Shown here: one piece after another, positions 5,998-31,462 of the stretch
Position numbering within the stretch: the first letter of the stretch is position 1
How the letters are laid out: each line of letters opens with the position of its first letter
Virus record (IMG/VR): IMGVR_UViG_3300028581_000012
Length of the DNA stretch: 64,000 nucleotides
Origin: a virus
Direction: 5' to 3' (one strand)
Position numbers and translations under genes: made by a program
The notes under the pieces: model-generated
Seen by the model: only the letters and a program-made list of their open reading frames with translations
Told to the model about the DNA's origin: nothing
The model's database searches: none

Positions 5998-8211
5998 TTA
6001 AAAATCGTACTTAATAGGATACTGTTGGACACCTTGTCTTTTTTCAGGTGATTGTATCTTAGAAATAACCATAAGTTCTTTGTCTGCATTGTAAAGTGCA
6101 ACTTCAGTAACATAAGGTGGTGTCGTACCATCCCAAGTTGGATTTGAAGAATCAAAGAATTGTGTTTGACCTAAATTACATAAGAAGTTCATAACATATA
6201 TAGTTGCTTGAATATCTGTTTCAATTGTACCAAAAAAGAAGAATTCACCACCAAAGTTTAATGTAACCCCCGTTTGATTTAATACAGGTAATGTTATATA
6301 ATCATTAAGGTCATATATTGGTGCAGTGTCATACATATTTTTTGTCAACTGTAAAGTTGTTCCAGTTAAACCTGTTACAGTTAGATAACCACCAACCGTT
6401 GTTGCTGATAACTGTGATGTGACATCAATTTCTCTCCATTGCGTTACATCAGGTCTTGTTGTTGCTGTTGTAACTTTTTGAGCCAATAACTTTATATCAT
6501 TTGCCGTAAATCCTGATGGTAATCCAACTGAAGGTACTTGTAAAAATGGGAACTCATTACCAAACCTAACAAGGATGTCAGAAGCGCCCGGTAATAAACT
6601 TTGGTCGTTTCCTGTGATTGTTTGGTAGTAATTACAATGAAGTGAATTTGTAAATGCTGAGTTATTAAATCTATATGTTAAAAACAAAGTTTCAGTATTT
6701 CCTGTTAACAATCCTTGAGTTCCACCTAAAACGCCACTAAATGTATTTGGTGTTACTAAACCTAATTTAGGTGCCGGTAAAGTCCAACTTCTATTTGATT
6801 TGTAATTTAATGCTGCAACTATTTCATCATCATCAAAAACAATAATTTTTAAATCAGGAAAAACCTTACCAACTCTATTTGGGATACCATTTGAATTTGC
6901 GTGAGTGTCCCAAAGATGATAATATCTTAAACCAGGAGCATTAAAGTTTATACTTTTTCTTGACTCAATATAATGTGGAGTAAATAAATTTAAACTAGTA
7001 AAACCTGATGGGTCTGTATATAATACTTCACCAGTTGTACCACTTGGATTTTTATGCCACATTAACCACGGAATTGAAAGTTTGAAGTTTATTGCTTGAC
7101 CTGTATTTCCCGGATTGTTTGCGTCAAAATCTTGCATTGCAAACTTTTCACCATAATAATTGTCTATTGCTTGATTTGTGTAATGTACAATCGCAATGGC
7201 CTTTTGTTCGGATGGTTTTAGAGTTATTTTTTCAGAAAATGAATTATAAAAATAAACTGAGTCAGTATCTGTTTGACCACTATCGGAATAGTAACCCAAA
7301 TATTCTTTAGAACCCGTATATCCTGTTGATGCGAATTGATTAAAGTCTTGGTTTACCGTATCAAAAATACCAGCCGGTGATTCTGTCCACGGAATGTTCA
7401 TATTCCAAACTTTAACATCATTTTGTGAAACATCACAATTAGTTTCAAAATTAAATACATTCGGATGCCAATAAGGTTCAGGTGTAAAAGAATCATAAAT
7501 AACAGTCATACCTGATGGGTAAAAAACAACTCTTGAGTCACCAGTATAACCCATTCCACTAAAGTTTGGTAGTTGTCTATCAACTTGTATATTTACGGTT
7601 GTCGCAGTAGATGTGTCACCTGTTACTCCAACCACAACATAACTAAATATCGGCGCCGCTCCTGTAAATGGTTGTATGTTATCCGTTCCAAATAAAAATA
7701 AAAACATTCCATTTGTAACTGTACCTGATACCGTTGGGTCAATACTTGAATATGTTAATGTTAATACATCTCCCGAGGTTACCGCCGAATTTGAAACAAT
7801 AAAATTTGGATTAATTGTATAGGCTGTTGAGGTGTATGCACTAAAAACAACGGGTGAGCCAGTTGACCCTGTGAAAAAACCACGAGGAGCTGCACTATTA
7901 AAAACATTATCTATGTAAGACGCATCAAATGGAACACCTAAAGTACTTCCTGATGTTGAGTCCACAAATAACGGGTATTTAACTTGCATTCTATTTTTTT
8001 CAGGAATTGGAGCTAAATTTTGTGCGTTGTATTGAGGCATTAAAACATTAAGTTGTACATAATCTGTATTACTTGTACAGTTATAACAAACTTCACTATC
8101 TCCTACCTCAAAATAAGAAATATCAAATTTACCTTGCGATATCTTTTTTCTTGCTGCGTCAGTGATTATGGTGTTAATTAACGCTGAGGTATTTTTGATT
8201 ATATATGACAT
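5998..8211 (-). CDS. Tail/baseplate structural protein
   Basis: Ser/Thr/Gly-rich; N-terminal ITDAARKKISQGKFDISYFEVGDSE and C-terminal YVTEVALYNADKELMVISK resemble tail-fibre/collar attachment proteins; located in the tail cluster. Confidence 0.6.
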   Translation of the reverse strand: MSYIIKNTSALINTIITDAARKKISQGKFDISYFEVGDSEVCYNCTSNTDYVQLNVLMPQYNAQNLAPIPEKNRMQVKYPLFVDSTSGSTLGVPFDASYIDNVFNSAAPRGFFTGSTGSPVVFSAYTSTAYTINPNFIVSNSAVTSGDVLTLTYSSIDPTVSGTVTNGMFLFLFGTDNIQPFTGAAPIFSYVVVGVTGDTSTATTVNIQVDRQLPNFSGMGYTGDSRVVFYPSGMTVIYDSFTPEPYWHPNVFNFETNCDVSQNDVKVWNMNIPWTESPAGIFDTVNQDFNQFASTGYTGSKEYLGYYSDSGQTDTDSVYFYNSFSEKITLKPSEQKAIAIVHYTNQAIDNYYGEKFAMQDFDANNPGNTGQAINFKLSIPWLMWHKNPSGTTGEVLYTDPSGFTSLNLFTPHYIESRKSINFNAPGLRYYHLWDTHANSNGIPNRVGKVFPDLKIIVFDDDEIVAALNYKSNRSWTLPAPKLGLVTPNTFSGVLGGTQGLLTGNTETLFLTYRFNNSAFTNSLHCNYYQTITGNDQSLLPGASDILVRFGNEFPFLQVPSVGLPSGFTANDIKLLAQKVTTATTRPDVTQWREIDVTSQLSATTVGGYLTVTGLTGTTLQLTKNMYDTAPIYDLNDYITLPVLNQTGVTLNFGGEFFFFGTIETDIQATIYVMNFLCNLGQTQFFDSSNPTWDGTTPPYVTEVALYNADKELMVISKIQSPEKRQGVQQYPIKYDF

Positions 8212-8215
8212 ATTT

Positions 8216-8223
8216 TATAAATA
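8216..8223 (-). promoter_or_regulatory. TATTTATA upstream motif (putative late promoter)
   Basis: 4 nt before ATG at 8211. Confidence 0.55.
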
Positions 8224-8243
8224 TATTTTTTTATAAATTTATT

Positions 8244-9818
8244 TTAAGAAAAACCTATTTTTTGTAAAGGCATAGTTTTAGGTGAACCGTTAACACTTAT
8301 ACCACTACAGGTTGATGGTGTTATAGTAACATTTGTAATTGAAACTGAATCCAATATATACCCTTCTAATTGACATCCTCTAAATTCTATAGTTGGTGTG
8401 TTAATAAATTGGGTAATTGTTCCGTTTATAAGTCCACCTGAAGATATTGTCGCAGTATAAGTATTTGTGTAAGAACTAAAGTTTATATAAGATGAAGCAC
8501 AAGAAGGTCTACTTAATCCTGTTGATGTGACAATTGAATTAACAGGTGAACTAAGTGTTGCACTACCAACAGTTGTTGCGGTTATTGAATTTGTAATTAC
8601 AGGAACGTTTGATGCGAATGTTTTACCTGTAAATCCAACGGCAGTATTAATTGTAAAGTTTACAGTTTTACCAGCAGGTAATGTAGGACTTACATTAATT
8701 TGATAGTACCAAGTTTTTGTTACGGTAGTCCCAACATTCACTTGATTAGCTAAAGGTGTCAAACTTAAATTTAAAACATAATTAGTAAATGCACTTTGTG
8801 GTGTTAGAGTTACTGATTGTGTTGTAACAGTATTATTGGTATCTTTAATATGAACTGTATAATTTCCAGCAACTAAACCTAAAAAGACATTTGACGCTTG
8901 GTAATTAACCCCATTTATTGAATAAGTGTAAGAAGGGACCCCACCATATCCTGTCACATTTAACACTCCATTACTTGTATTTGAGCAAGTTGGTTGGGTT
9001 GTTACAACAGATAATGTAAGTGGTGGTGTTGTGCAAACTCCTGTACTAACTAATACGGTTCCTTGATAAGTCCCTAACAATGACCAATTTCCTGTTGGTG
9101 GTGTTGTTGGTTGAAGTAGTGCGGGTACACCAGGATTAGTCCATCCACTTATTTCCCATCTTGTATTTCCTGTGTTGTAGTACATTGTTGTTGTTGAACT
9201 TGTCCAAGATGGGTATCCATTAATTGTTGAACCGCTTGTGTATGTGGTTAGATATGTGTTGTTTAATGAAGGAGTATATTCAAAACATAAATTTTGTGGG
9301 TAAACCGGTGTAGGTACTGGTGGTGGTAAACAATCTGAACAAGTATCAAATGGCCCTGTAGAAATTACTGCAAAATTATTTACATAGGATTGTCCCGTAT
9401 AAAGTGTTTGACCACTATGTGTCCAACAACCCGTTTGTGTTGTTAAACTATAAACTTTACCATCAACAAACTTAGATGGTAAATCGGCAACATAATAAAC
9501 AAAGTTTCCTGAATTTTGACAATCCTCAAATTGTTCCAAATAAAAACTATCATAGTCAACACTACAAGTTGTTCTTCCTGTAAAATCACCATAATAATCA
9601 ATAACCGTTGCGGTATAATCACCAGGTAGTAAGTTTGTTATTAAAGAACCTTGAGCTCCGTTGCTCCAAGAAATATTATATGGTGGTGTTCCTCCTGTAA
9701 CATAAAGAGTTATAAGACCATTTGTAGAATCAGGTGTTGACGCATTAATACTATCACAATCTAACCCCAATGGTAGAAGTGTTATTATATTACAACTATT
9801 TCCACTTAAAAGTCCCAT
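8244..9818 (-). CDS. Tail fibre/adhesin-like protein with SprB-like repeats
   Basis: NGLITLYVTGGTPPYNISWSNG...LLPGDYTATVID and TCSNTSNGVLNVTGYGGVPSYTYSING...LVAGNYTVHIKD. Confidence 0.7.
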   Translation of the reverse strand: MGLLSGNSCNIITLLPLGLDCDSINASTPDSTNGLITLYVTGGTPPYNISWSNGAQGSLITNLLPGDYTATVIDYYGDFTGRTTCSVDYDSFYLEQFEDCQNSGNFVYYVADLPSKFVDGKVYSLTTQTGCWTHSGQTLYTGQSYVNNFAVISTGPFDTCSDCLPPPVPTPVYPQNLCFEYTPSLNNTYLTTYTSGSTINGYPSWTSSTTTMYYNTGNTRWEISGWTNPGVPALLQPTTPPTGNWSLLGTYQGTVLVSTGVCTTPPLTLSVVTTQPTCSNTSNGVLNVTGYGGVPSYTYSINGVNYQASNVFLGLVAGNYTVHIKDTNNTVTTQSVTLTPQSAFTNYVLNLSLTPLANQVNVGTTVTKTWYYQINVSPTLPAGKTVNFTINTAVGFTGKTFASNVPVITNSITATTVGSATLSSPVNSIVTSTGLSRPSCASSYINFSSYTNTYTATISSGGLINGTITQFINTPTIEFRGCQLEGYILDSVSITNVTITPSTCSGISVNGSPKTMPLQKIGFS

Positions 9819-9819
9819 A

Positions 9820-11394
9820 TTACCAAGTTGCTCCGCTTATTCTTTTCCAACCTGTGTTGTCTTTATAGTAAAAATAACTATTGTCCCATCGTAAAGAACC
9901 GGGTTCTCCTAATGTGTCTAAACTACTTGTTGGTGTACCTGAATAAGCCAAAACAATGTTTGGAACATATACTGTATTTGATAATGTTGCAGTAATACCA
10001 GTCCCTCCTAAAATAACTGAACGAAATGTATTTACCGTATTTCCTGAACCACCAATAATTGCAGAATCATAAACTGGAGCTGAAGGTCCAGAACCCGTGA
10101 TGGTATTATATTTTCCTCCTAAAATTGTTGAGTTATCCGTATCACCACTCTGAATTAAATTAGAAATACCTCCTAATATCGCACCTTGTGAATTATTAAT
10201 TGTAGATTGTTTACTATAAACAAAAGATAATTCCCCGTTATTTATGTTGTCATTTCCCCCCGCAAAAGCTTTGTCTGAGTTAATTTGATTTGCTACCCCA
10301 ATAATAAATGAATTATTCCCTTCTATTTTGTTAGAGTCCCCAAAAGAAACTGAACTTGTTCCGACCACATAATTATTATTATTAAAAACACAAGAATTGA
10401 TGCCAAATACGGTGTTGGATTTTCCTTGTGCAAAAGTAGATTTACTTAATGCGTTATTAGTTTCATTTATAGCCATTGAAAAATCTCCCAAGGCTGCAGC
10501 ACTGCTACCTTTAGCGTTAGAAATGAATCCACCAACGTTTTGGTTACCATTCCAAGTAGAAACAGGCGCAGTATTTCCAACAACCGCAAATGAACTAGTA
10601 CTTGTTGAAATATCGTACAAATAAATTATTGTTTGACTTCCGTTAAAAGTTGCTCCTGATACTTTTCTATAGGTTTCAGTTAAAGTATTTGCATATGACA
10701 CATCATTTATATACACATAATCATCTGAAGTATATTCTGTTGTGATGTCACCATAAGAACTTGAAAGGTAAATAACTCCAGCAGTCAATCCTGTTGCTAA
10801 ATATCCTTTGTTTGTACCGGCCAAAGTTCTATAACCTTCAGCGTGTGAATAAGTACCTATTGCAATTGTAGTCTTACCTTCAGCGTGAGATGCATTTCCA
10901 AATGCAAGTGTGTTTTCACCTTCAGCGTGTGAAGTAATTCCTGACGCGATTGTACCTGAACCTTCAGCGTGTGTGTAATTACTTAACGCTTGTGTATTAT
11001 TACCAAACGCAAAAGATAAAGTCCCTTGAGCATCAGAACCTGTGGATTGAACTCTATTATGTACTGTTATTTCGTTTGAACAAGCATGAATATTTTCAGT
11101 GTAAAAACTTGTAATACAATTTCCCGAACCACCTGTAAATGGTGTTGTAAGACCTGAAACGGTAAAAGTTCCGCCAGTACTATTGGTAAAAGTTAATGTA
11201 CCTCCTGAAGAAACTGCAGTTCCACCTGTTAAATATACATCAGGTGAACCCCCAAATAAAGGTACCAACTGACTTAGTGATGCTTTATATGATGAACCAC
11301 TAGCACTTTGTGATGTATCACCTGTTATTACAATATGTATAAGGTCATTAAGTGAAGCCCCTGTGGCGAATGTCCTTGATGTTAAAGTTGCCAT
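9820..11394 (-). CDS. Tail fibre/receptor-binding protein with YadA-head-like repeats
   Basis: Four HAEG repeats of 14-aa period (e.g. SHAEGENTLAFGNA), beta-helix-like ILGG..N.I repeats, C-terminal GSLRWDNSYFYY...WKR. Confidence 0.75.
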   Translation of the reverse strand: MATLTSRTFATGASLNDLIHIVITGDTSQSASGSSYKASLSQLVPLFGGSPDVYLTGGTAVSSGGTLTFTNSTGGTFTVSGLTTPFTGGSGNCITSFYTENIHACSNEITVHNRVQSTGSDAQGTLSFAFGNNTQALSNYTHAEGSGTIASGITSHAEGENTLAFGNASHAEGKTTIAIGTYSHAEGYRTLAGTNKGYLATGLTAGVIYLSSSYGDITTEYTSDDYVYINDVSYANTLTETYRKVSGATFNGSQTIIYLYDISTSTSSFAVVGNTAPVSTWNGNQNVGGFISNAKGSSAAALGDFSMAINETNNALSKSTFAQGKSNTVFGINSCVFNNNNYVVGTSSVSFGDSNKIEGNNSFIIGVANQINSDKAFAGGNDNINNGELSFVYSKQSTINNSQGAILGGISNLIQSGDTDNSTILGGKYNTITGSGPSAPVYDSAIIGGSGNTVNTFRSVILGGTGITATLSNTVYVPNIVLAYSGTPTSSLDTLGEPGSLRWDNSYFYYKDNTGWKRISGATW

Positions 11395-11418
11395 TTTTTA
11401 TTTTATATATATCATAGT

Positions 11419-11709
11419 TTATTGAAAGTCGTATGGTATTCCGTCTTGGAATTCAAAACATATTAAATTTTCAAATTGTTTATATGTGCAAAAACTATCT
11501 GAACAGAATTCACATCCATTTGCATCTATTATTTTAATAACATAACTGTTCATTGATTCAAAGGAAACAGGTAAGGTAAATGAATATGGTACGGTAGTAA
11601 TTGTTGCAATATATTGACAAGTACCATATATACCACATTCATCGCAAACCCACACGTCGTATGGACTTGTTCCTGATATAATTGTGTTAAGTGTTACTAT
11701 TGTTGCCAT
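11419..11709 (-). CDS. Small Cys-rich tail-fibre adaptor-like protein (paralog family)
   Basis: SGTSPYDVWVCD...IKIIDANGC shared with 16282..16569 and 16573..16782; likely start MATIV (11709), track start 11718. Confidence 0.65.
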   Translation of the reverse strand: MATIVTLNTIISGTSPYDVWVCDECGIYGTCQYIATITTVPYSFTLPVSFESMNSYVIKIIDANGCEFCSDSFCTYKQFENLICFEFQDGIPYDFQ

Positions 11710-11711
11710 TT

Positions 11712-13322
11712 TTAACAAACTCCATTAACTGTGCAGAACTCAGTGATTACACCACTATTATCAACACTATAAATTTTATTTCCGTATCTTATATAATCAA
11801 TCGTCAAAGGATATAATAATGATGAATTACTATAAACTGTAACACCTGTTTGTATTTGATTAATTGAAGGGTGGGTATAGAATATTGTTTGAACTCCAAA
11901 GTTTGTTAATTGACATCCTGGACAATTAACTGAATATGCACCATTACCTATCCAAGTATTAAATGTACCAACGAGTGGTTCAACTTGTAAACATTCTGTG
12001 CAGTCAACATATGTTGTTGCTGTTGTCGCCGTAAATCTATCTTCATTTACCACAATATAACCTGAAGGTGGAACATAATTTATAAAGTATCCTACATAAC
12101 TATAACAATTTCCGGAATAATCCCTAATTACTTCTCCTGGGTCTAGATTTGTTGGTGGATATGCTGTTTGTGTAATCATAGATGTTGTCGTACAAGATGT
12201 GAACACAAAGTAAGTACCAGGGGCATATGTTGGTGTAGGTGTCGGCGTAGGTGTAGGTGTCGGAGTTGGTGTCGGAGTTGGTGTAGGTGTCGGAGTTGGC
12301 GCTGGACAAACAGTACATCCTGTGTACGCTGAAACAACAAGTTTAACTGTCGCGTTTGGACTAGCAGTTGTATCTTGTATGTAAGTTGCACATTTTAATT
12401 GGTCGTTAATGACACCCAAGAACGTCTGACCTGTTGTTATTGGTGTTCCTGATATATCTAAAGAACCTGAAACATAATAAGTGACGTTTTCATTACAATC
12501 TCTTAACTCTTTAACTCTAAAACATACAAAGTTTCCATCATCAATTGTAAATGTTACAGTTTCACCCGTTAAATTAATTGTTGGTGTCGGTGTTGGAGTT
12601 GGTGTAGGAGTTGGAGTTGGTGTAGGAGTTGTTCCACTAACTGTAATATCAACGGTAAACCCTGAACATATATCGGGTGTTGGTGATGGTGTCGGAGTTG
12701 GTGTGGGTGTTGGAGTTGGTGTGGGTGTTGGAGTTGGGGTTGGTGATACACATAACACATCAACTTCAAAATCAAATATATCACAAACAGGTGTTGGTGT
12801 TGGCGTTGGAGTAACACAAGAACCTGCGTAAAATAAATCCGTATATAAATTTGGACAAGTTGATAATGTTGGGTCTTGTCCAAAGAAATAACAACCTGTT
12901 CCAGGTGCTGTACCTAAACACCATTTTGTAGGTCCTTTATAAATGTATCCCGGTTGTGTTCCACCTGTAAAAAACGGTAAAGTATTATAACTTCCCGCCA
13001 CAACATAACTACCACTATATGCTGAAAAATTTACATCGTTAATTTGAACACAATACACATTTGAACAACATTCTCCCGTTGCGCAAAATGATGATGAGCA
13101 ACCTGATAGTTGTTGGGTGTATATTCCGTTAGGTACAATACTTGTTGCAGTGAATCCTGAAGTGAATGCAGATACTATAGTATAACATCCATTAACAACA
13201 ACACTATCATAAGTGACACTAAAAACTGTTGTAACAGCCGATGTTGCACCGGTCCAATTTGATTGGTCCGTATAATATTGTAATCCGGGATAACAACAAC
13301 TTTGTAAGAGTATATTCGCCAT
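11712..13322 (-). CDS. Cys-rich tail-fibre-like protein with mucin-like Pro-Thr linkers
   Basis: Four (PT)n tracts separating Cys-rich modules. Confidence 0.7.
12229..12812 (-). repeat. Pro-Thr dipeptide repeat tracts (about 12229-12303, 12580-12633, 12675-12745, 12788-12812)
   Basis: ggtgtaggtgtcggagttggtgt... synonymous-variant hexamer repeats. Confidence 0.9.
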
Positions 13323-13341
13323 TAAAAAATTAACTTTATAA

Positions 13342-13349
13342 TATAAATA
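13342..13349 (-). promoter_or_regulatory. TATTTATA upstream motif (putative late promoter)
   Basis: 19 nt before ATG at 13322. Confidence 0.55.
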
Positions 13350-13367
13350 AGCTTATGTTTATTTTAT

Positions 13368-14165
13368 TTACAACTCAAGGTCCGTTTCTTCAGGAAGATA
13401 GTTATAAAAGTGTTTATATGCGTGAATAAAAGCAACATCGGGCTGTTCTTCCATAGGTATTGACCAACCACTTTTATCCCACCAATTTCCTTTATTTTTT
13501 GAATCGTATTCTGCCCAATCATTCCAAACACCACTTGTATAACCAAAAAATTGAAAAAGAAATGAAAGTGTCGCATCACACCACTCGATTGGTCTTGAAT
13601 CCAACTGATATATTTCACCCCAAGGAACCTCGTTTAAATTATTATATATTTCAATAAATTTTTTACGATTGAATATTGCCCCTCCACACGCACCATAACC
13701 TTCTAATGAGCCAATCTCACTCCAATAATGTCGTGATTCGTCTGTTATATTGAATTTGTTTTTCAAATATTTGTAAAGTTCAGGAGTATACATAGGTCCG
13801 TTTGCTCCCGCAATATCAAAAGTCGGTGGTTTTGTTATTTCACATTTACACCAAACATCATCTTCATAATGTATTACCCAATCAACGTCTTTTAATGTTG
13901 TCACACAAGCATCATAAATTCTTTTTAACCAATCCAAAGGTCCATTTTCACCTAAAAAAACCCTACCCGAATGAGGATTATTAATTCCTTGTTGTTCAAT
14001 CCAAGTATAGTCACAATTAAATTTTTTTGCAACAGGCTCTAATAATTTAGAACCATCTTCATATAACGCAACTGGAATGTTTGGGTAAATTTTTCTTAAC
14101 TGTTCTAGCGCTTTATAACAAGCAACAAGTTTATGCCCTGATTGATAAAATGCACCTATTTTCAT
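13368..14165 (-). CDS. Glycosyltransferase, GT-A fold
   Basis: MKIGAFYQ...LRKIYPNIPVALYEDG, VIHYEDDVW (DxD-like), CGGAIF, WCDATLS, C-terminal FIHAYK. Confidence 0.7.
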   Translation of the reverse strand: MKIGAFYQSGHKLVACYKALEQLRKIYPNIPVALYEDGSKLLEPVAKKFNCDYTWIEQQGINNPHSGRVFLGENGPLDWLKRIYDACVTTLKDVDWVIHYEDDVWCKCEITKPPTFDIAGANGPMYTPELYKYLKNKFNITDESRHYWSEIGSLEGYGACGGAIFNRKKFIEIYNNLNEVPWGEIYQLDSRPIEWCDATLSFLFQFFGYTSGVWNDWAEYDSKNKGNWWDKSGWSIPMEEQPDVAFIHAYKHFYNYLPEETDLEL

Positions 14166-15403
14166 ATTTCACCTGTTATTTGTTTTATCCACCCATTTTC
14201 TTTATGGTGTAACCATATTGACCACGATTTAGCAGAATCATCAACCATAAAGGTTCTCTTAATTTGGACGTAGTCACTTTTAACACTATAACAAGTTTTT
14301 AATTCGTCTTCAGAGGCATCTTCTCTAAATATTTCACCACCAAATTCATCTAAAAATGAAACGGCCCAAAAATCATAATTATCTTCAGGTGCTTCAATTC
14401 TTGGAACAACTATATTGTATGTGAATTTATTTAGTTTTGTTTCAAACCAATTTGAGTCGTCGTTAATTGGCGGGTCAGTCCCTTTTAATGTTTCGGGGTG
14501 TAATCTTCTTTTTTTAAAATCAATACCAGCATATAACTCATAATCCCTATGAGACCTTACATCACCTAAACCAAATTCCCCTAAATCAATATTATTATCT
14601 TCTTCTTGTAACATATGTCTTAATCTAACCAACCCTTCTGAATTGATTACATGCCATTCTTTTTCAATTAGACCACTTTTTACATTTTCTTCATTAAAAT
14701 CATCCCAATGTTTAGTTCTACCTATTCTTGTATATTCATGCCAAACAACTGTCTTATGGGGGTGGAATAAATCATAACCCAAAGTATAAGACCTAATAGA
14801 TAGACTTATTTCATCACCTGCAAAATATATATTTGGGTCGTACTTGTACTCATCACAATGTTTACCTAATGTAAAAAAGAAATGACCGCTTACAAATCTT
14901 GCAGGTATAGGTTTTTCTAATTTTTGCCAATTTGGTATTTGTTCAGGATAAAAGAAAATTGTTCCATACTCTGAAAACTTTCTTGCAACACACTTGTATG
15001 GTTCTTCGTTTAATAACTTATTAGTTTTTGGTTCATACATACCTGCGTATGCGGTAATTATTGGTTTTTCAACACCAGTTAATTTCATCATTTCAATTAA
15101 TTCTACATCCCAATCTTGTAAAAAACGGTGATGTGAGTCTAATTGCATTGTGTATTCTTCACCCTTCCATAGTTTTTGAATAAGACTTCTAGCCCAACAT
15201 AAACCTTTACTTTTGGTCCAGTGATAGTCCAAAATTGTGAACCTTTCGTCTTTTTGAAACTCTTCTAAGGATTCATTTTCGTCTCTTTGCCAACAAAGAC
15301 CGAATGTTAGATTTTCAGGATATTTTGCTTTATTAATACAATCTCTAATTGTTGGTAAGAGTTCGGGGTCGCGATAAGATGCGATTTGAACAAATATTTT
15401 CAT
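14162..15403 (-). CDS. Glycosyltransferase resembling GT60 (Skp1-hydroxyproline/polypeptide alpha-GlcNAc transferase, 'GlcNAc' family)
   Basis: IFVQIASYRDPEL, SKGLCWAR, QLDSHHRF..WD, FVSGHFFF, YDPNIYFAGDEISLSIRSYTLGYDLFHP, WHEYTR. Confidence 0.85.
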   Translation of the reverse strand: MKIFVQIASYRDPELLPTIRDCINKAKYPENLTFGLCWQRDENESLEEFQKDERFTILDYHWTKSKGLCWARSLIQKLWKGEEYTMQLDSHHRFLQDWDVELIEMMKLTGVEKPIITAYAGMYEPKTNKLLNEEPYKCVARKFSEYGTIFFYPEQIPNWQKLEKPIPARFVSGHFFFTLGKHCDEYKYDPNIYFAGDEISLSIRSYTLGYDLFHPHKTVVWHEYTRIGRTKHWDDFNEENVKSGLIEKEWHVINSEGLVRLRHMLQEEDNNIDLGEFGLGDVRSHRDYELYAGIDFKKRRLHPETLKGTDPPINDDSNWFETKLNKFTYNIVVPRIEAPEDNYDFWAVSFLDEFGGEIFREDASEDELKTCYSVKSDYVQIKRTFMVDDSAKSWSIWLHHKENGWIKQITGEI

Positions 15404-15451
15404 AAAGAAAAATTATCAAATAAAGTATACAAATAAACATTTTTTTAAAAA

Positions 15452-16258: not shown

Positions 16259-16265
16259 AGGTTTT

Positions 16266-16273: not shown

Positions 16274-16281
16274 AATATTTG

Positions 16282-22945: not shown

Positions 22946-22955
22946 TTTTTTATTT

Positions 22956-22963
22956 TATAAATA
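22956..22963 (-). promoter_or_regulatory. TATTTATA upstream motif (putative late promoter)
   Basis: 10 nt before ATG at 22945. Confidence 0.55.
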
Positions 22964-22977
22964 GTTTATGTAATTTT

Positions 22978-24066
22978 TTATGTTTGATTAATTTTATAAT
23001 ATCCGTATCCATACCTAACCATATCACCTATATTATCAACTTCATTTAATCTTTGTAAAGGTTCAAAGGCACTATACTTACCTCTTTCAATGTAAACATC
23101 ACTTTGAACTTCGGGGTCCATAACAAAGTCTAATAGATATTCATTTTTTGTTATTGCCGAAAATAAAAGGTCGTTTTGGGTAAATCCTGAACTTTGAAGT
23201 AGGTATAATGTTTGCCCATTTGGAAAATCGTAATACGTAATGTCATTAATTGTGTATGAGGTATACCCTGAAGTTATTGAATTTATTTGACCGTATGGGA
23301 CTCCATTTTTTATAAAAGTATATCCAACAGTATATGGGTTAGGTCCCCATCTTTTTACGTCAGTTAATTTAGATTTAGTGAACCCCGATACAGGAAAAGG
23401 TACTGTCGTATAAGAACTTGATATTTGTGACGCTACGTTGTTTTGTGAATCACCTGTTGCAATAAAATCATAACTAACAGGTATTCCTGACCAAATACCA
23501 CCTTGTGGTGTAAAAGTAAAATTACCTTGTAAATTGGAAATGGTCACACCCGTCAAAGGGACAGTAATTGGTTTTTGAATAACCGTCATTCCAAATGTGT
23601 TTTGACCTGAAAAGGTTATAGTATAATCACCAGGTGTTGTCGGATATAAATGATTTAGTGGTTGGTTTGAAACTTGTTGTGTTGGGCTACCGTCCCCCCA
23701 ATCAACAAAGTAATTTGAAAGACTTATAAAAGATATTTCAATATCCCCCGATGTGTTATAGAAATATACATCATACGGACTTAAAGTATTTGCAGAAAAA
23801 ACAAAGTTTGCTAATACATCTTTTTGTAATAATAATCCGTCAAATTCACTATAAAATCCAATGTCATTCATTGTTTGGGTTAACATTATAGGAATTGTTA
23901 ACCCTGTAAGTAAAGAAGTTCCACCTGTACCACCACTTAAAATATAAGACATACCAGAATAGACACCAAACGTTTCAAGTCCTGTGTCACCACTATAAGT
24001 TTCTGTAAAAATATCTGATAAGATATTTTCAGGAGAAACAACTATTGAATATTTTTCAGCCTCCAT
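22978..24066 (-). CDS. Structural protein with PKD-like domain
   Basis: YFVDWGDGS...HLY..PGDYTITFSG. Confidence 0.65.
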   Translation of the reverse strand: MEAEKYSIVVSPENILSDIFTETYSGDTGLETFGVYSGMSYILSGGTGGTSLLTGLTIPIMLTQTMNDIGFYSEFDGLLLQKDVLANFVFSANTLSPYDVYFYNTSGDIEISFISLSNYFVDWGDGSPTQQVSNQPLNHLYPTTPGDYTITFSGQNTFGMTVIQKPITVPLTGVTISNLQGNFTFTPQGGIWSGIPVSYDFIATGDSQNNVASQISSSYTTVPFPVSGFTKSKLTDVKRWGPNPYTVGYTFIKNGVPYGQINSITSGYTSYTINDITYYDFPNGQTLYLLQSSGFTQNDLLFSAITKNEYLLDFVMDPEVQSDVYIERGKYSAFEPLQRLNEVDNIGDMVRYGYGYYKINQT

Positions 24067-24917
24067 TATGGGTTTCCGTATTCATACCATTTTATGACAT
24101 TAGTCGTATCACCAACTCTTAATAATGTTGGTGCTTGGTTTTGTTGTGGAATTTCTTTATAAACTTGGTATTCATAATTTGTAAAATCTAACTCCACTTT
24201 GTAGTAAAAGTATTGGGATTTATTAAAGTTAAATTCATTTCCTGCAGAAAATGTAGATTGTGGTTCATTCATAAATCTAACAAACTGACCGGTTTTTGCG
24301 TTAAAAAACTTTGCAGTCATATAAAATTCTGTAATATTAATAAAATCTCTTTCTTTTAACCAATAGATAAAAAACCCCTCTTTATCAGCCCCTGTGTAAT
24401 CTAACTTAAACTTTGGTTTTTTAACATTTACTTGGGTTTGATTATTTAAAGGACCTAAAAACCCAACTCTTGTTTGTCCTTGTTGTGTTGGAATTACAAC
24501 ACTAAAATATGCTTTTTGATTTTCATTTGTTTTTGTATCATAAAAATCTAATTTGAAAAAACTACCTTTAAAAGAGTTTACAAAATAATATAATTCAGGG
24601 TCTGTAAATGTTGCATTTGCATAATCAACGGACCAATCACTTGAAGTTGCTGAGGTAACTTGTACGGTTGAATCTAAAAAATAAAACTCATAGTTTATAT
24701 CAGTTTTATCGGGTGTTTGTAAGTAAGATGTATTTGCAAATCTTGTAGTTTCAAAATCATCAATACCATTTATCAAATCTTGTAATATATCTTTTTCAAA
24801 TTCAACTATACCATCATTTCTTCCTGCCATATCAAAACTTATTTCAACAGGAATATTAAAAAATGTGTCTTCCGGTGTTACACTAAATCTATAGTAGTTA
24901 TTATTCACAATCGTCAT
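24066..24917 (-). CDS. Hypothetical structural protein
   Basis: 283 aa aromatic-rich ORF overlapping neighbours in the tail cluster. Confidence 0.65.
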   Translation of the reverse strand: MTIVNNNYYRFSVTPEDTFFNIPVEISFDMAGRNDGIVEFEKDILQDLINGIDDFETTRFANTSYLQTPDKTDINYEFYFLDSTVQVTSATSSDWSVDYANATFTDPELYYFVNSFKGSFFKLDFYDTKTNENQKAYFSVVIPTQQGQTRVGFLGPLNNQTQVNVKKPKFKLDYTGADKEGFFIYWLKERDFINITEFYMTAKFFNAKTGQFVRFMNEPQSTFSAGNEFNFNKSQYFYYKVELDFTNYEYQVYKEIPQQNQAPTLLRVGDTTNVIKWYEYGNP

Positions 24918-26616
24918 TTATTATCTGTTGATATTCATTAGAGAATGTATTGTTGTTTCTTAGTATTGGGTACTGTAAAAATATGCAGTTTAAAAATGGG
25001 TAATGGGAACCATTTATAAATGGATTATTAACACCAATACCATCACTATCAATAAACCCATAGGTGTATAAATCCCTCCAAAACCATTTATTATTGTATT
25101 GACTAAACCAAGAATATCCAGGTATTCCTACTACAGATTTTTTATCACCATTTTCAATATAATCACTAAACGCTCTAATTGGTATAGAATAGTGTGGATT
25201 ATACAAGTAACCATCAGGATAGTTTTGATTACCTGTTGTTAAAAACAATATGTCATTAAATGAGTACTTATGAACCATTCTTGATAAAACATATTCTTTT
25301 TGTTCTATATAGTTGTACTCACAAAAATCCCCTGAAATAACATCACCCTGATTTAATATATCGTTATAATAAAAAGTTTGACCGTTATATAAATAAGAAG
25401 AAGTGGGAATGTTATCTTTATTCAAACTACTACTGTGATTCCACCACGTATCTATTGAGTTTTCTAAAAAGTTAAAGTTCCAACCAATATCAATACCACT
25501 TGGTATACTATTTTGATTTGGGAATGGTTTATTAAACCACCCCATATAACCTCGGTTAATAATGGTAAAAAACAATTCGGTGATTGGTTTTCCATTATTG
25601 TCAATATACCCCCCAATTTTAACATCCTTATCAAATGTGAATGAAAAACTTTGTGAATTATTTTTTACCGAAACTCTTTGTACTTGGTTTGGTGTAAGTG
25701 CTGAGTATTCTAATTTTTTATCAATTGCAAAAGGGTTATTTTCAAATCCAACTTTACCTACATTGCATTGCTCACTATTTTTTATTATTTTATGTAATCT
25801 TACATAATATATTGATTTTGTTTCCGCAGAGTTTGCAGGTTCAGTTATTCTTTTTAGGTTTCCGTAAATACCTGTCTGAACATCAATGGTAGGGTATTTT
25901 AAATCATAAATTGTAAAAACTTTTTCTTCTGAATTAATAGTACCATCACCCAAAGAATAAACTTGAAATACTGTTTTGTTATTTATTGGTGTTGATAGTT
26001 CAACGTATTGACCCACTTGTAAGTTATGAATTGTACCACAATAAAAATATACAAGTTGTTTTCCATTAAATTTACCTGTTGTTAATACATAAGGTATTCC
26101 ATCACCCGCCAAAAAACCACTATTAGTAACACCAAACTTTTCATCAGTATATGACATAGTTTGAGCCGTTGTACTTGAAAATGCATAACTCATATAAAAC
26201 GACCAATTATATGATGATGCACTTTTAGTGACAAACGGAATATGTCCAGTAATCCCACTAACTCTTACCATAGAAAACTCATCAAATTGAGGATTTCCTT
26301 CCCAAAAGTTTGCGTTATTTGTTGCATTTGCAATAGCATTTGTATAATACAAATAATTTTTAAATGGGGTATATGAAGTTTTACCTGTTACTGTATTATC
26401 AAACACATTTGTGATTTTACCTGCAACTCTAAACTTATCACTTGATTGTCTTTCTTGGTCAAAAATATTTTGTTGGTTTACAAGAATACTTCTATCCCCT
26501 TCAATTAACTCCCTTCTATCCCCAATTAAAGGTGGTTGTATCCAAACATCTCTGTCAACACTTCCGGCACTTCTTTCAGACCCAAGTACAATTCTTATTT
26601 CACTTTCGTTAGACAT
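24901..26616 (-). CDS. Hypothetical structural protein
   Basis: 571 aa ORF overlapping neighbours in the tail cluster. Confidence 0.65.
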   Translation of the reverse strand: MSNESEIRIVLGSERSAGSVDRDVWIQPPLIGDRRELIEGDRSILVNQQNIFDQERQSSDKFRVAGKITNVFDNTVTGKTSYTPFKNYLYYTNAIANATNNANFWEGNPQFDEFSMVRVSGITGHIPFVTKSASSYNWSFYMSYAFSSTTAQTMSYTDEKFGVTNSGFLAGDGIPYVLTTGKFNGKQLVYFYCGTIHNLQVGQYVELSTPINNKTVFQVYSLGDGTINSEEKVFTIYDLKYPTIDVQTGIYGNLKRITEPANSAETKSIYYVRLHKIIKNSEQCNVGKVGFENNPFAIDKKLEYSALTPNQVQRVSVKNNSQSFSFTFDKDVKIGGYIDNNGKPITELFFTIINRGYMGWFNKPFPNQNSIPSGIDIGWNFNFLENSIDTWWNHSSSLNKDNIPTSSYLYNGQTFYYNDILNQGDVISGDFCEYNYIEQKEYVLSRMVHKYSFNDILFLTTGNQNYPDGYLYNPHYSIPIRAFSDYIENGDKKSVVGIPGYSWFSQYNNKWFWRDLYTYGFIDSDGIGVNNPFINGSHYPFLNCIFLQYPILRNNNTFSNEYQQIINDDCE

Positions 26617-29600
26617 CTTGGTTTAATATATACGCTTTAATGTATCTGTTAATGGCACTTTTACCTTTATTCAAACCAAAATAAAAATGGTTTGGTCCCC
26701 CAACAATAAATGACTGTTGTGTACCTGCCGGCCAGTTTGGATTTGCCAATCCTTGTGGTGTTTGATTGTAAATATAACCTCGTCTTCCTGTTGTTGATGG
26801 ATTAAAGTATGGTGTTGTTGGGGGGTTAAAACTAAAGTTTTGGTATAGTTGTGAGTAAAACCCACCATTAGATAAAACATTAGTATTCCAATCATTTGTA
26901 TCTGAACCAAATATTGATGATGTTGTGGTTGATGACCATTGATATGTTGGTACTAGTTGGGTATTTGGATACCCAAAATAATTTGTAAGTGTTGGTGTAA
27001 ATGTTTGAATACCAGGACTCAATGTTAATCTATTAACGGTATTTGAACTAAAGAATATACCCATTAAAGCATCACCTGTACCAAGGTATAATTCATTATC
27101 TGAATAATTATCTTCATCAAATTCTTCAATCCCATATTCAGAATTTATTGAAAACATTTGTGCAACATCCCCATCAATTCTGTCTTCACTTCTTGAAAAC
27201 ATTCTGTTTATTGATGCATCACCTAAACCTAAAACTTGTCCCCAAAAGTTTGAATTTATCAATCTTGAAATAATGAATAACTGTAAAATTTCAGAAGTGT
27301 CATTATACGATGTACTTTTTATTGACTCAATTAAATAACCTTCAAAGTTAGGGTTAGTACAAATTTCTTTTGTAAATTCATCTCTTGGTCCTAAATCCAT
27401 TATGGTTGTAGGGAAAAATAAATTACGAACATTCATTCCCTTAAAGTTTGCATCTTGCAAAGTTGGGCTTGCAAATGTTCCTTGTCTTGGTTTTTGACCA
27501 ATAAATTTAGTTCCATCGTAAATCGCACTTCTATAAAAAAGTGAATTCGTTGTTCCACGAGTATAAAATATTGGTCCTTGATATGGTCTTAATGTACTAT
27601 CAGGTGTTCCACAAAACTTATACTTTTTTGGTTGTCCTGTAATATTGAAAATTGTTTGTTTTTTTAACGAAAACATATATAGTGAACCATTCACCCAATT
27701 GTTTTGAAACACTTGTGAAAATATACCTCTACACGCAGCAAACACCATTCTAAATCTTGTCTTCCATTCAAAGAAGTAAGTAATGTCTTTTGGTATTGAA
27801 ACAATAAGTGGGTTATCAACAAACTTATAACATCCCCCCGACATTCTTTTGCCGTTAGGGTTTTCACTACAAGGATTTTGAACAGAAAATGAGGTTCCTC
27901 CCCCTTGATAACATTTAAGTACTGTCATATTTTCACAACTTAATGAAGCCAAGACTGTACTTGAAACTTGACTTGGAGTATCTCCTGTCAAATCTTGAGC
28001 ATTGTTTGTGGTATCACCGGGCCCATTTGTTGTTGGCGCCAACGCCGTTCCACCTTCTTCATCAACAGCATAAACTGAAAAGTTGTCATTTAAAAATAAA
28101 CTAAATGAACTATTACCACTTACTTCTGTTATATCTGAAGTTGGTAATCTATCAGACCTAAATACAATGTTTAATGAGTTAGATACTGATATATTAGAAA
28201 CCGCTGTTGTGTGGTAAGCCGGGGAATAAACTCTTGTTGTTGTAGTTGCAACATTTATTGGGGAACCTGGAGTTGCATTTGAAGCAATTAATGAACCACC
28301 TTCAATATTACCTTGAGGACTTAATACCCCATTTGTCCATTGGAACGCCAACTTATTGTTACCAACACTTGGTTGAATATTAGAGTACACACCAGGTGTT
28401 GATGTAAAATACCCTAAATTAACAACGTCACTGTTATAAGACTTAAATGAACTTTGTGATTTATCGGTTGAGTTGTAGTAATATGGTGCATTGTTTGTAA
28501 ATGCAGTAAATAATGTACTATCAGGTGTAAAACCAAAAGGTGGGTGATAAAGAGTCGCATTATTGTTATTTGATACTGAATGTGATTCAGGGGTTTTATA
28601 GTCATTAAACCATGCACCACTTCCTGAGTTTTGTTGTATTGGGACGTTCAAGTAATAACTTCCTTCAACAAAAGGACCTGTACCTAAGTTAAAACCAAAA
28701 ATTTTAGATAAGTCGTATTTAATATTTTGTTTTTCGGTGTATGGGTCAGTACCTCTTGTCAAAAATATTACTTCATAATTTGCAAAATCATCAATGAACT
28801 TAATTGGGAATACATAATCACATTGTTGTGGTAAAATTCCATAACAGAACCTTTGTGTTTTTTTGAATAGGTATTTGTTTAATAAACCACCAGTTGTATT
28901 TGTAAGTCCTGAAAACTGTGTTACAGTCCCCCCTGTAATTACTTGGAAATATTCAACACCGGCAGGGAATTTGTAATCTTTACCATCTTCAGATATTTTC
29001 AACTTTAAGTTTACGGTTTGCTGTGTACCTCCTTGTGTTATATAATTAACAGGGACTGTAACTAAACTTGAGGCATTGTAAGGTGTTGTACCTGTAATAC
29101 TATTAGTATTAAATTGATTTGAATTTGTAATTCCCGTTAAGTTAGGGTCATTGATTGAATCAGTGTCTTGGAATGTTAAAAGTTGTCCAGGTGGTAACCC
29201 ATTGAATGTTCCACTATCAACAAATAACATCATAATACTATCTGTAAACGGCTGTGACGCATCTACTGTTGTCGTGTTAGGTATTGTGTTTCTAACTGTT
29301 GTTTGAATTAAGTTATCCCCATCAAAATACCTTTGTCTTATATTTGCCAAGTTTAACGATTGGGATAATGTAACATCGTTTGCTAAAAATTTTATCCCTC
29401 CTTGAGCAGGAAACTCAGATATTGGAGTTTTTACTAATTTATCATTATCATTTCCAAGATTTTGATATTGATATCCAGCCATAGCTTGAGCAATACCATT
29501 GTTAAATGCCGCTGGGTCGTTTGATGTGGACGATAAAATAGAATTGTACGTACTATAACTTACTGTTGAATTAGTATCACCCAAAGGACTATTATTTTCT

Positions 29601-31462
29601 GATGATATTGATACATTAGCACTTTGTGCAAATCCACTTTGTGTATCATCTTCAGGTAAAGTTTCATCGGTACAAGGACACGCCTCACAATCAGGATATG
29701 ATAACATTGGTAAAGATATTCTTTTAAAAATATTTTCTTTACCTAACTTTTTTATCGCTTCTTTTTTACATCCACCTTGTGGTCTAGCACCAAAAGTTAT
29801 TGCTCTTATGGCTAAACAAATACCATAGATAACAACGTTTATTACCCATATTAATAAATTTATGATGATTCTTAATATTGGGTAGATAAACGCCAATACG
29901 TGTAAAAGTATTATAAGAATTATAAAAGTAGGGGTTATAATTATTGTTAATAAACTAAATAAAAAGAATATAAAATCAAAATTTCTAACACCGTCATTAA
30001 CAGGGAATCTATTTGTTGTTGTTGTACACCTTCTATCTGTTATTTCTTTTATCCCTAAATGACGACTTCTATTGAACCCCCATTTCCATCTATCTATAAA
30101 ATTTGCAACAGTATAAACTTTATTAAAATTAAATTCATAGAATTTATCATCACAATTAACGGCCTCTTGAATCATTTGTTGACCAATAGTTGTGTTTACA
30201 TCACCGTAGTCATCCCAATCAAGACTAAACGCATATGAATTTAACTGAGCTGTTAGGTCAGTAGGTGCATTCACATTTGCCGTTGTCCATCCCCATTCTT
30301 TTACATTAGGAACAAGATAATCGGCGCGTAATATACTGGCGTTCATACCATCTTCATTTTGGTATTGAATTCTAAATCTATATTTACCTTTTGTTGGTAT
30401 ACCCACGTTTGGGTCTGTTGAAAGTACTTGTTCTCCAAATTCATTTGTGGTTACGTAGTCTAAATTCATTGGCACGTTTGCCAACCAAGTACCATTATCG
30501 TCAATTATTTTTCCGCCTTCAGGTAAAGAGTACTGTTCTAAAGCGGGTCTACCGTTAATGTCGTAATTAATTGTTTGTCTGATTGCTAAAATTCTACCTT
30601 GACCTGTTACTAAATCACATAAATTACCTGAATCTTTTTTTGGTTTACAGTTTGATTTTAAAAAGTCTTCTTCACTTGTTGAAAATAAAGAACCCATAAA
30701 AACGGCCTGTGGTGTGATTTCTATACCTAAATCTCTTAAATCAAAATCAACTCTTGTAATACCAACATTACAAATGTTTTCTTCACCCCAAAAAGATGCA
30801 ACATCAATATCTTTTTTCTGACCAACTATTTGTGGTAATGAGTCCAAATCTGTTGATGCTTTAAGTTGGTCCCCATCAAATTGTTCAGAAGTCCCACGAC
30901 CCAATCTAATTAAGTCTGCAGGTCTTAGTGAAAAACACCCAATATTAGAAAGGTCTAAATCTAAAACCGCTGTTTGAATTCCTAACGGAACCCCTACAAT
31001 CATAAAGTCACCACTTTCATTTGTTTTGACAGTGTACTTATAATACTTTTCATAAACTTCTAATACTTCTTTTCGTTTCAGAACATCTTCAACATCAGGA
31101 AATGTACCTGTTGGGGTGTGACCTCCGTATTCTTTAACGTATGGAAGTAAATTATATCTAAACCCATCTTCATTTTTTTGGTCAGGTCTTTTGTATGGAT
31201 ATAATGTAGACACTATAGGGTCATTTTCATCAACAGCGTCTAAAGGTACGAATATTGAAACATTCGCATTTGGTACTCCGTAACCACCATTAACAATAAC
31301 TCGGCCAGCAACAACACCATAATCGGCACAGAATCTTGTGTACACATCTTCTTGTCTTAATTTTAGGGAAAGTATTTCCAAAAAATCGAAGTCTTGTGTG
31401 ACGTTGATTCTTAGATTTTGGTCTTTTAGTGGTTGAGCCTTTAGTCTGTACGTCTTGGTCAT
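26609..31462 (-). CDS. Large baseplate-associated protein with N-terminal beta-sandwich and internal hydrophobic (membrane-like) hairpin
   Basis: GVVAGRVIVNGGYGVPNANVSIF...TNESGDFMIVGVPLG (carboxypeptidase-regulatory-like); about 60-aa hydrophobic stretch. Confidence 0.6.
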   Translation of the reverse strand: MTKTYRLKAQPLKDQNLRINVTQDFDFLEILSLKLRQEDVYTRFCADYGVVAGRVIVNGGYGVPNANVSIFVPLDAVDENDPIVSTLYPYKRPDQKNEDGFRYNLLPYVKEYGGHTPTGTFPDVEDVLKRKEVLEVYEKYYKYTVKTNESGDFMIVGVPLGIQTAVLDLDLSNIGCFSLRPADLIRLGRGTSEQFDGDQLKASTDLDSLPQIVGQKKDIDVASFWGEENICNVGITRVDFDLRDLGIEITPQAVFMGSLFSTSEEDFLKSNCKPKKDSGNLCDLVTGQGRILAIRQTINYDINGRPALEQYSLPEGGKIIDDNGTWLANVPMNLDYVTTNEFGEQVLSTDPNVGIPTKGKYRFRIQYQNEDGMNASILRADYLVPNVKEWGWTTANVNAPTDLTAQLNSYAFSLDWDDYGDVNTTIGQQMIQEAVNCDDKFYEFNFNKVYTVANFIDRWKWGFNRSRHLGIKEITDRRCTTTTNRFPVNDGVRNFDFIFFLFSLLTIIITPTFIILIILLHVLAFIYPILRIIINLLIWVINVVIYGICLAIRAITFGARPQGGCKKEAIKKLGKENIFKRISLPMLSYPDCEACPCTDETLPEDDTQSGFAQSANVSISSENNSPLGDTNSTVSYSTYNSILSSTSNDPAAFNNGIAQAMAGYQYQNLGNDNDKLVKTPISEFPAQGGIKFLANDVTLSQSLNLANIRQRYFDGDNLIQTTVRNTIPNTTTVDASQPFTDSIMMLFVDSGTFNGLPPGQLLTFQDTDSINDPNLTGITNSNQFNTNSITGTTPYNASSLVTVPVNYITQGGTQQTVNLKLKISEDGKDYKFPAGVEYFQVITGGTVTQFSGLTNTTGGLLNKYLFKKTQRFCYGILPQQCDYVFPIKFIDDFANYEVIFLTRGTDPYTEKQNIKYDLSKIFGFNLGTGPFVEGSYYLNVPIQQNSGSGAWFNDYKTPESHSVSNNNNATLYHPPFGFTPDSTLFTAFTNNAPYYYNSTDKSQSSFKSYNSDVVNLGYFTSTPGVYSNIQPSVGNNKLAFQWTNGVLSPQGNIEGGSLIASNATPGSPINVATTTTRVYSPAYHTTAVSNISVSNSLNIVFRSDRLPTSDITEVSGNSSFSLFLNDNFSVYAVDEEGGTALAPTTNGPGDTTNNAQDLTGDTPSQVSSTVLASLSCENMTVLKCYQGGGTSFSVQNPCSENPNGKRMSGGCYKFVDNPLIVSIPKDITYFFEWKTRFRMVFAACRGIFSQVFQNNWVNGSLYMFSLKKQTIFNITGQPKKYKFCGTPDSTLRPYQGPIFYTRGTTNSLFYRSAIYDGTKFIGQKPRQGTFASPTLQDANFKGMNVRNLFFPTTIMDLGPRDEFTKEICTNPNFEGYLIESIKSTSYNDTSEILQLFIISRLINSNFWGQVLGLGDASINRMFSRSEDRIDGDVAQMFSINSEYGIEEFDEDNYSDNELYLGTGDALMGIFFSSNTVNRLTLSPGIQTFTPTLTNYFGYPNTQLVPTYQWSSTTTSSIFGSDTNDWNTNVLSNGGFYSQLYQNFSFNPPTTPYFNPSTTGRRGYIYNQTPQGLANPNWPAGTQQSFIVGGPNHFYFGLNKGKSAINRYIKAYILNQDV

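Follow-up and report, generated by a model that had tools for sequence, protein, structure and literature searches.

A recurrent tetrapeptide in the tail module

The window analysed here is the whole 64,000-nucleotide stretch of the IMG/VR virus record IMGVR_UViG_3300028581_000012, a myophage sequence with a G+C content of ~0.31 in which all open reading frames (ORFs) of at least 200 residues are on the minus strand. We detected that nine ORFs of its tail module, between positions 5998 and 26616, contain 111 copies of the tetrapeptide pattern [ST][GA]xT (Table 1). A preliminary description of this region had put the pattern forward as a candidate glycosylation sequon of the outer tail proteins, potentially read by two glycosyltransferases encoded in the same module or by others elsewhere in the genome.

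Pooled over the nine ORFs, the 111 copies compare with 21.0 ± 4.4 expected from shuffling of whole proteins, 23.3 from shuffling within 30-residue blocks and 24.7 from shuffling within 12-residue blocks (z = 19–20), a roughly fivefold excess over chance, and the two block shuffles rule out an artefact of composition or low complexity. From composition, 0.5–5 copies are expected in a single ORF, and each of the nine is enriched on its own (p ≤ 0.004, 1000 shuffles). The approximate manual counts of the preliminary description were reproduced almost exactly for the 737-, 768-, 536-, 362- and 982-residue proteins; its 9–11 copies in each 524-residue protein became 9 and 12 on recounting, and its rough expectation of about two copies in the 737-residue protein agrees with the computed value. 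The enrichment survives all three kinds of shuffling, and the pooled signal is stronger than had been estimated. The span given for the motif was partly revised: the 268- and 571-residue proteins were added to the enriched set, and the 1617-residue ORF at the far end is not significant. All six copies in the latter lie between residues 776 and 1159, and its gene follows that of the gp6-like wedge protein in transcription order, occupying the slot that gp7 has in T4.

No motif enrichment was detected in NrdA, the helicase and other replication proteins, the tail tube, the gp6-like protein, both ~2190-residue ORFs, the two glycosyltransferases, a 302-residue ORF and a 283-residue ORF, and the UvsX/RecA-like ORF has one copy. 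The internal proteins that had been named earlier as lacking the signal (NrdA, helicase, tail tube and gp6-like protein, with one copy in RecA) are therefore flat in the recount as well.

Table 1. Features of the window, with observed and expected copies of [ST][GA]xT
Feature	Position	Strand	Observed	Expected	Remark
737-aa conserved protein	5998–8211	minus	20	1.9	last tail-module gene
524-aa fibre-like protein	8244–9818	minus	9	2.9	SprB repeat
524-aa fibre-like protein	9820–11394	minus	12	3.5	YadA-head-like repeats
536-aa protein	11712–13322	minus	14	2.8	four long (Pro-Thr)n tracts
265-aa glycosyltransferase (predicted)	13368–14165	minus	0		GT-A fold
413-aa glycosyltransferase (predicted)	14162–15403	minus	0		GT60 family, PF11397 'GlcNAc'
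268-aa fibre protein	15452–16258	minus	7	2.0	collagen-like (Gly-Thr/Ser-Ser)n
768-aa SprB-repeat protein	16783–19089	minus	26	5.1
982-aa tail or baseplate-periphery protein	19089–22037	minus	8	1.3
362-aa tail protein	22978–24066	minus	10	0.9	8.8x across the family in relatives
571-aa tail protein	24901–26616	minus	5	0.5
1617-aa protein	26609–31462	minus	6	2.9	p = 0.075, not significant
gp6-like baseplate wedge	31537–33375	minus			after NrdA in transcription order
Two adjacent ORFs, 2191 and 2186 aa	43425–50000, 50309–56869	minus			between baseplate genes
Tail tube	59974–60462	minus			after sheath, followed by baseplate hub protein
Tail sheath	61636–63972	minus			early in transcription order

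The distribution of the motif over the virion was analysed in G007, a 292-kb relative scored as 99% complete, whose homologue of the 737-residue protein is 76% identical to that of the window. The tail module of G007 has 121 copies versus 31.8 expected, while its other ORFs, after setting aside four individually enriched ones and one 2919-residue outlier, have 82 versus 74.7. The four further enriched ORFs include a 644-residue ORF (14 versus 1.7) and the major capsid protein (5 versus 1.2). In the capsid protein all five copies precede the match to the HK97-like core, and in the tail sheath all copies (ten in G007 and three in the window) are outside the conserved core. Over the two sheaths and the capsid protein, 18 of 18 copies are thus outside the cores, with a chance of ~0.001 under random placement; this value takes the cores as ~32% of residues and does not control for composition differences between core and non-core parts. 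The earlier claim that the motif belongs to outer and not to inner proteins appears broadly right according to this breakdown.

The genes around the tail module are arranged as in Table 1, and the two giant ORFs are followed, in transcription order, by genes for SSB, a UvsX-like recombinase, an exonuclease, a DnaB-like helicase, NrdB and NrdA. A gp25-like wedge gene separates the 2191- and 2186-residue ORFs, neither of which is motif-enriched. Downstream of the wedge genes, a run of large unannotated ORFs extends to position 5998 and is followed by genes for a RuvC-like resolvase and a primase; judged by its position, this run encodes the baseplate periphery and the fibres. Among cultured phages no close relative was found. 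Its relatives number in the hundreds in IMG/VR and metagenomes, with contigs of up to 295 kb, and the clade is a large, globally distributed group of aquatic jumbo myophages with genomes of ~290 kb. Bacteroidota are the probable hosts, a judgement based solely on the SprB-type domains and the low G+C content.

Specificity of the motif and turnover of its sites

According to a single-position scan of the window and 34 homologues of the 737-residue protein (one per 50%-identity cluster), the enriched residues are Ser and Thr only at the first position, Gly and Ala only at the second and Thr only at the fourth. The first position is shared almost evenly in the nine ORFs, with Ser in 60 and Thr in 51 of the 111 copies. 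Control patterns in the same ORFs gave, observed versus expected, 34 and 21 for the reversed motif, 33 and 21 for [ST]x[GA]T and 18 and 21 for [GA][ST]xT; altered spacing gave 32 and 21 for [ST][GA]T and 18 and 21 for [ST][GA]xxT, and Ser at the fourth position ([ST]GxS) gave 24 and 12. We regard these controls as flat. The residue at −1 is hydrophobic in 62 of the 111 copies and Ala is frequent at +1. It had been stated that x varies freely, but a preference for F/Y/L/Q was found at this position; Pro was never present there versus 1.2 copies expected, numbers that are too small for significance. The use of Ala in place of Gly would fit a requirement for a small residue better than a turn preference.

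The Ser codons of the motif are of both the TCN and AGY types, with the same use of TCA and AGT as elsewhere in these genes. This ordinary codon usage places the signal at the peptide level and rules out one at the DNA level. O-glycosylation in Bacteroidota uses the sequon D-(S/T)-(A/I/L/V/M/T), which is read in the periplasm. It resembles the phage motif in being short and centred on Ser/Thr and in belonging to the presumed host phylum, but it is a different motif, as had been pointed out before, and it is not enriched in the nine proteins (15 copies versus 20.6 ± 4.1).

The comparison with cellular proteins of the same fold family was made for the 768-residue SprB-repeat protein. Its 119 phage orthologues have 2675 copies versus 579 expected (4.62x), while 120 cellular SprB-repeat proteins of similar Ser/Thr/Gly content (type IX secretion system, OmpA and gliding-motility proteins of Bacteroidota) have 1646 versus 1378 (1.19x, median 1.11). 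The preliminary description had proposed cellular beta-sandwich homologues as the comparison that would tell a phage signal from a property of the fold, and the two sets are far from equal. The Ala form [ST]AxT is enriched 5.8x in the phage set but reaches only 0.69x of expectation in the cellular proteins; the interchangeability of Ala and Gly is thus confined to the phages. In 16 baseplate, fibre, sheath and capsid proteins of T4 the motif occurs 22 times versus 21.8 expected (1.0x). The unrelated phage G012 (G+C 0.51) has 25 copies versus 26.0 expected over 52 kb, G013 (80% complete) has 50 versus 45.1, and the region analysed in XacN1 is likewise flat. The cellular set together with T4, G012, G013 and XacN1 rules out that the motif is a general property of the SprB/beta-sandwich fold or of phage fibres.

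The evolution of single sites was followed in the family of the 737-residue protein, an uncharacterised phage family of 816 representative clusters (E ≤ 0.001) with strongly conserved N- and C-termini. No named fold was found for this protein with Pfam, PHROGs, NCBIfam, Foldseek (PDB and BFVD), VIA-align wide or the ESM Atlas, and its best structural likeness is a generic beta-barrel at residues 127–237 (Z ~7). The 64 non-identical relatives used here (46–98% identity) have 7–21 copies each versus ~2 expected. Individual sites are retained in 5–97% of the sequences, with common exchanges of Ser and Thr and of Gly and Ala that preserve the class (for instance TAYT/SAYT, SAFT/TAFT/TGFT and TATT/SGTT), and the motif occupies 61 different alignment columns in at least one of the 65 homologues. 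Pairs of homologues that are ~50% identical share 6–10 sites and have 2–9 private ones each, versus ~2 by chance. A de novo scan of the motif-rich set returned SGxT and TGxT as the top patterns (z = 32–33). These sequence comparisons indicate that selection acts on the pattern itself.

The motif is not present throughout the family. Among 105 full-length representatives, at least ten copies were found in 34 and at most two in 21, 12 of the representatives having none, and on this sequence evidence the motif is dispensable for the fold. In 11 aligned motif-poor homologues the motif sites carry K/N/D/E with x remaining M/Y/F/L (for instance P-S-G-M-T versus P-K-N-M-K). Since charged residues are tolerated at the first, second and fourth positions, these are presumably exposed and x is presumably buried. 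A gapped-tripeptide scan for a substitute sequon in the motif-poor homologues returned conserved blocks of the family only, and this candidate was rejected. In the AlphaFold model of the 737-residue protein, which is of mediocre quality (mean predicted local distance difference test score, pLDDT, of 61), the confidently placed sites are at strand-loop junctions.

The homologues with low Ser/Thr/Gly/Ala content are bimodal. Some have 5–7 copies versus 0.5–0.8 expected, and nine (P0252, P0255, P0300, P0313, P0320, P0348, P0362, P0367 and P0373) have no copy versus ~4.8 expected in total, a distribution suggestive of an on/off state and perhaps of avoidance.

Glycosyltransferases of the window and its relatives

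Two adjacent genes inside the motif-rich module encode what we predict to be an initiating-type and an elongating-type glycosyltransferase; the start of the latter gene overlaps the end of the former, and the 536-residue (Pro-Thr)n protein adjoins the pair on its downstream side. The product of the first, ORF 14162–15403, matches PF11397 (GT60) with 217 bits at a cut-off of 21 (E = 6.3e-64, positions 96–351 of the 352 of the profile) and phrog_24687 with E = 1.9e-104. Its residues D89-S90-H91, along with others, are invariant in seven diverse homologues, and from this conservation we infer a catalytic role for them, no solved relative having been found by sequence. ORF 13368–14165 has no match in Pfam, PHROG or NCBIfam. 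Its structural model (pLDDT 71.5) was related by Foldseek to the blood-group enzymes GTA/GTB, alpha3GalT, BoGT6a and the catalytic domain of UGGT (E ~2e-7, probability 1.0, with TM-scores of just 0.40–0.50), and E101-D102-D103, an acidic motif of the D-x-D type, are invariant among its homologues. According to this model, it is a putative glycosyltransferase of the GT-A fold, GT6/GT8/GT24-like and of the retaining type. The assignment of both genes as glycosyltransferases in the preliminary description therefore stands, while their role as readers of the motif has become doubtful, the link between the pair and the motif being weak.

Eight relatives (37–99% complete) have a PF11397 gene; in three further contigs, one of them 56% and two ~35% complete, none was found. 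A GT60-GT2-GT8 cassette is present in unrelated phages, with GT60 proteins 60–63% identical. In the window (11712–16258) the GT60-like/GT-A cassette is flanked by the (Pro-Thr)n protein on one side and by the (Gly-Thr/Ser-Ser)n protein on the other; in G007 just three of 273 ORFs have (Pro-Thr)n tracts, of which the two that are large lie one on each side of the cassette (60282–64512, L114). The adjacency of Pro-Thr tracts and cassette recurs in the unrelated G012, L015 and G013, and in XacN1 the GT60 gene is separated from the ORFs with such tracts by ~9 and ~12 kb. The cassette looks like a mobile module for mucin-type glycosylation. The characterised GT60 enzyme TcOGNT1 of T. cruzi makes GlcNAc-alpha-O-Thr on mucins (PMC9472816), and the Pfam description of PF11397 names the hydroxyproline of Skp1 as a target. 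Because of the mucin-type activity of GT60 and the recurrent neighbours with Pro-Thr tracts, the (Pro-Thr)n tracts are a likelier acceptor of the GT60/GT-A pair than the motif.

Two further observations were made on glycan-related enzyme genes of other contigs. In G013, a 125-kb contig, the GT60-like domain is part of a 1069-residue fusion (L024, 9917–13126), which adjoins a 1788-residue protein with Thr/Pro/Ser tracts. An HtrL_YibB-like protein (PF09612) of ~550 residues is common in the tail modules of relatives (L128 497–2811; L211 6842–8515; L197, L204, L212–L214, L234), and in L128 it is accompanied by a gene similar to rhamnosyl-O-methyltransferases. The HtrL_YibB-like gene was considered as a marker of motif-free lineages and rejected, since motif-rich as well as motif-poor lineages have it.

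Outside the tail module, G007 encodes a 1497-residue protein in which a TibC-like domain (PDB 4RAP, E = 8e-71) is fused to a MycF/CmcI-like sugar O-methyltransferase domain (L264, G007 176094–179393, and L262), and a GT9-like gene adjoins the fusion. Each of the three motif-rich relatives with a completeness of 96% or more has the TibC-like domain, which was seen in G007, G002, G008, G009, G016 and G017. No gene of this bacterial autotransporter heptosyltransferase (BAHT) type is present in G012 and G013, which bear GT60 and are free of the motif. A TibC/BAHT-like enzyme is thus a plausible second candidate for the reader, and the alternative named in the preliminary description, enzymes encoded elsewhere in the genome, is still viable. 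About 2 kb from the TibC-like locus of G007 there is a gene for a Ser/Thr-rich Gly-X-Y fibre protein of 2919 residues (181308–190067). In this fibre [ST][GA]xT is far below the level expected from composition, with 18 copies versus 106.

TibC heptosylates Ser-313 (N-S-G-G-A) and Ser-322 (T-S-A-A-V) of TibA, and not Thr (PMC4358343). The phage system, as we propose it, would resemble the BAHT systems (TibC and Aah acting on TibA and AIDA-I) in that beta-rich surface proteins are hyper-O-glycosylated at many sites while still in the cytoplasm, and in an acceptor Ser in a short inter-strand loop that is followed by Gly or Ala (S313-G, S322-A; PMC4358343). It would differ in its substrates, since the motif is present in proteins of many unrelated folds and the BAHT substrates are a single type of beta-helix. 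Of the acceptor sequence itself, the two have no more than the S-[GA] core in common.

Interpretation of the motif

We suggest that the best reading of [ST][GA]xT is a glycosylation sequon, a proposal drawn from protein sequences for which we see an even chance. The extended pattern Phi-[ST]-[GA]-x-T, with the hydrophobic residue Phi at −1, would be a peptide-level signal that selection maintains where solvent-exposed turns pass into strands in outward-facing virion proteins, and a phage-encoded cytoplasmic protein O-glycosyltransferase would use it as the acceptor. This would place well over 100 glycans on the distal tail, and others on those domains of the sheath and capsid proteins that protrude. 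A trans-acting reader is suggested because the specificity is sharp and directional, with Ala equal to Gly and Thr required at the fourth position; because cellular homologues and other phages are unenriched, sites turn over at a steady count and their placement appears exposed; and because protein-type glycosyltransferases are unusually numerous in the clade. Rather than the GT60/GT-A pair, the reader would more likely be the TibC/BAHT-like enzyme that relatives encode at another locus, or some different enzyme. In its most specific form, the proposal is that an undescribed Phi-[ST]-[GA]-x-T sequon is read in the cytoplasm, possibly by a TibC/BAHT-like enzyme with relaxed Ser/Thr choice, in parallel to a GT60 mucin-type system acting on the (Pro-Thr)n linkers; we put this version forward tentatively, at somewhat below an even chance.

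To our knowledge, glycosylation of phage virions is documented mainly in mycobacteriophages, and we know of no sequence rule for it. No account of such a motif, of GT60 in phages or of a phage virion sequon was found in full-text literature. A 2025 study of large aquatic Bacteroidota phages noted several core glycosyltransferases and cited the virion glycosylation of mycobacteriophages, with no mention of a motif (PMC12619734). In mycobacteriophages, phage-encoded glycosyltransferases decorate virion proteins, as is proposed here, and the glycans are at the C-termini of capsid and tail-tube subunits (Freeman et al. 2023, as summarised in PMC12619734). That summary describes no short internal sequon, whereas the candidate of this clade has four residues, is dispersed along the proteins and is mainly in the distal tail.

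Several results weigh against the sequon. Across the genomes compared, in which contigs of 4–69 kb cover the motif-free lineages, the presence or absence of no enzyme matches that of the motif cleanly, and GT60 occurs both with and without it: the GT60 homologue of G012 is 60% identical in a motif-flat phage, and the motif-poor clade member L211, with 2 copies versus 0.6 expected in its 737-residue homologue, has an intact GT60 gene beside the tail genes; its product retains every invariant residue and is 64% identical to the GT60 of a lineage rich in the motif. Neither G015 (75% complete) nor G003 (64% complete), both motif-rich, yielded the BAHT-like gene, the known BAHT enzymes act on Ser only and need no Thr at +3, unlike the phage motif with its equal Ser and Thr and its required fourth Thr, and E. 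coli Ag43 is not enriched in the motif (9 copies versus 5.7). The placement of the sites at strand boundaries and the conserved hydrophobic x are predicted equally by a structural role. The motif-poor lineages have a lower G+C content (0.24–0.29), and the motif density of the 737-residue homologue is weakly tied to that of its neighbours (rho = 0.26, with L146 and L275 mixed and one lineage that pairs a motif-poor with a motif-rich side), so that lineage-wide on/off covariation is weak at best.

The strongest alternative, which we regard as unlikely although by a smaller distance than the others, is a structural or physicochemical motif that remains unmodified. The [ST]-[GA] pair would form a turn or an N-cap and would be followed by a strand with x buried and Thr exposed, and the surfaces of the clade would be built from uncharged Ser, Thr, Gly and Ala in place of K/E/N/D, for example to remain soluble, to limit stickiness or to be stable in fresh water. 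The strand-loop junctions of the 737-residue model, the hydrophobic character of x and −1 with x often conserved, the K/N/D/E at the same sites of the low-G+C, motif-poor lineages and the weak tie between neighbouring proteins all agree with this explanation. It does not account for the cellular fold family, which remains at 1.2x versus 4.6x in the phages and at 0.69x versus 5.8x for the Ala form, nor for T4 fibres and other Ser/Thr/Gly-rich phage proteins without enrichment. The choice of Thr and not Ser at the fourth position, the equivalence of Ala and Gly at the second and the homologues that fold without the motif also argue against it.

A special case of the sequon, improbable in our estimation, is that the GT60-like enzyme itself reads [ST][GA]xT and the GT-A enzyme extends the product. 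ORF 14162–15403 is a strong member of a family whose characterised members (TcOGNT1 and Skp1 Gnt1) are protein-directed, and TcOGNT1 acts on Thr (PMC9472816), the residue that the motif needs at its fourth position; the pair also lies inside the motif-rich module, and the PF11397 gene recurs in the eight relatives. However, characterised GT60 enzymes act on mucin tracts rich in Thr or on one hydroxyproline and not on a four-residue motif, homologues are present in the motif-flat G012, G013 and XacN1, the gene is intact in the motif-poor L211, and the ORFs with Pro-Thr tracts that flank the cassette in G007 and adjoin it in G012, L015 and G013 offer another acceptor. It is more improbable still that the motif signals to a reader of another kind, such as a different modifying enzyme or a fibre chaperone, or serves as a surface element that binds a ligand. 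For this there is the general argument that a sharply defined, lineage-specific surface motif implies a trans-acting reader, but the window showed neither a kinase nor any other candidate, and the clade has several protein-type glycosyltransferases.

If the motif is a glycosylation sequon, glycosylation sites on the virions of uncultured phages would be predictable from metagenomes, and the motif with its enzyme would provide a compact pair of tag and enzyme for glyco-engineering in the bacterial cytoplasm. The surfaces of lake and ocean phages could prove to be heavily coated with sugars, which would bear on adsorption, grazing, aggregation and recognition by host defences. Even without modification, selection for a pattern of four residues at over 100 sites on the surface of unrelated folds would be an unusual case of a lineage-specific design of the virion surface.

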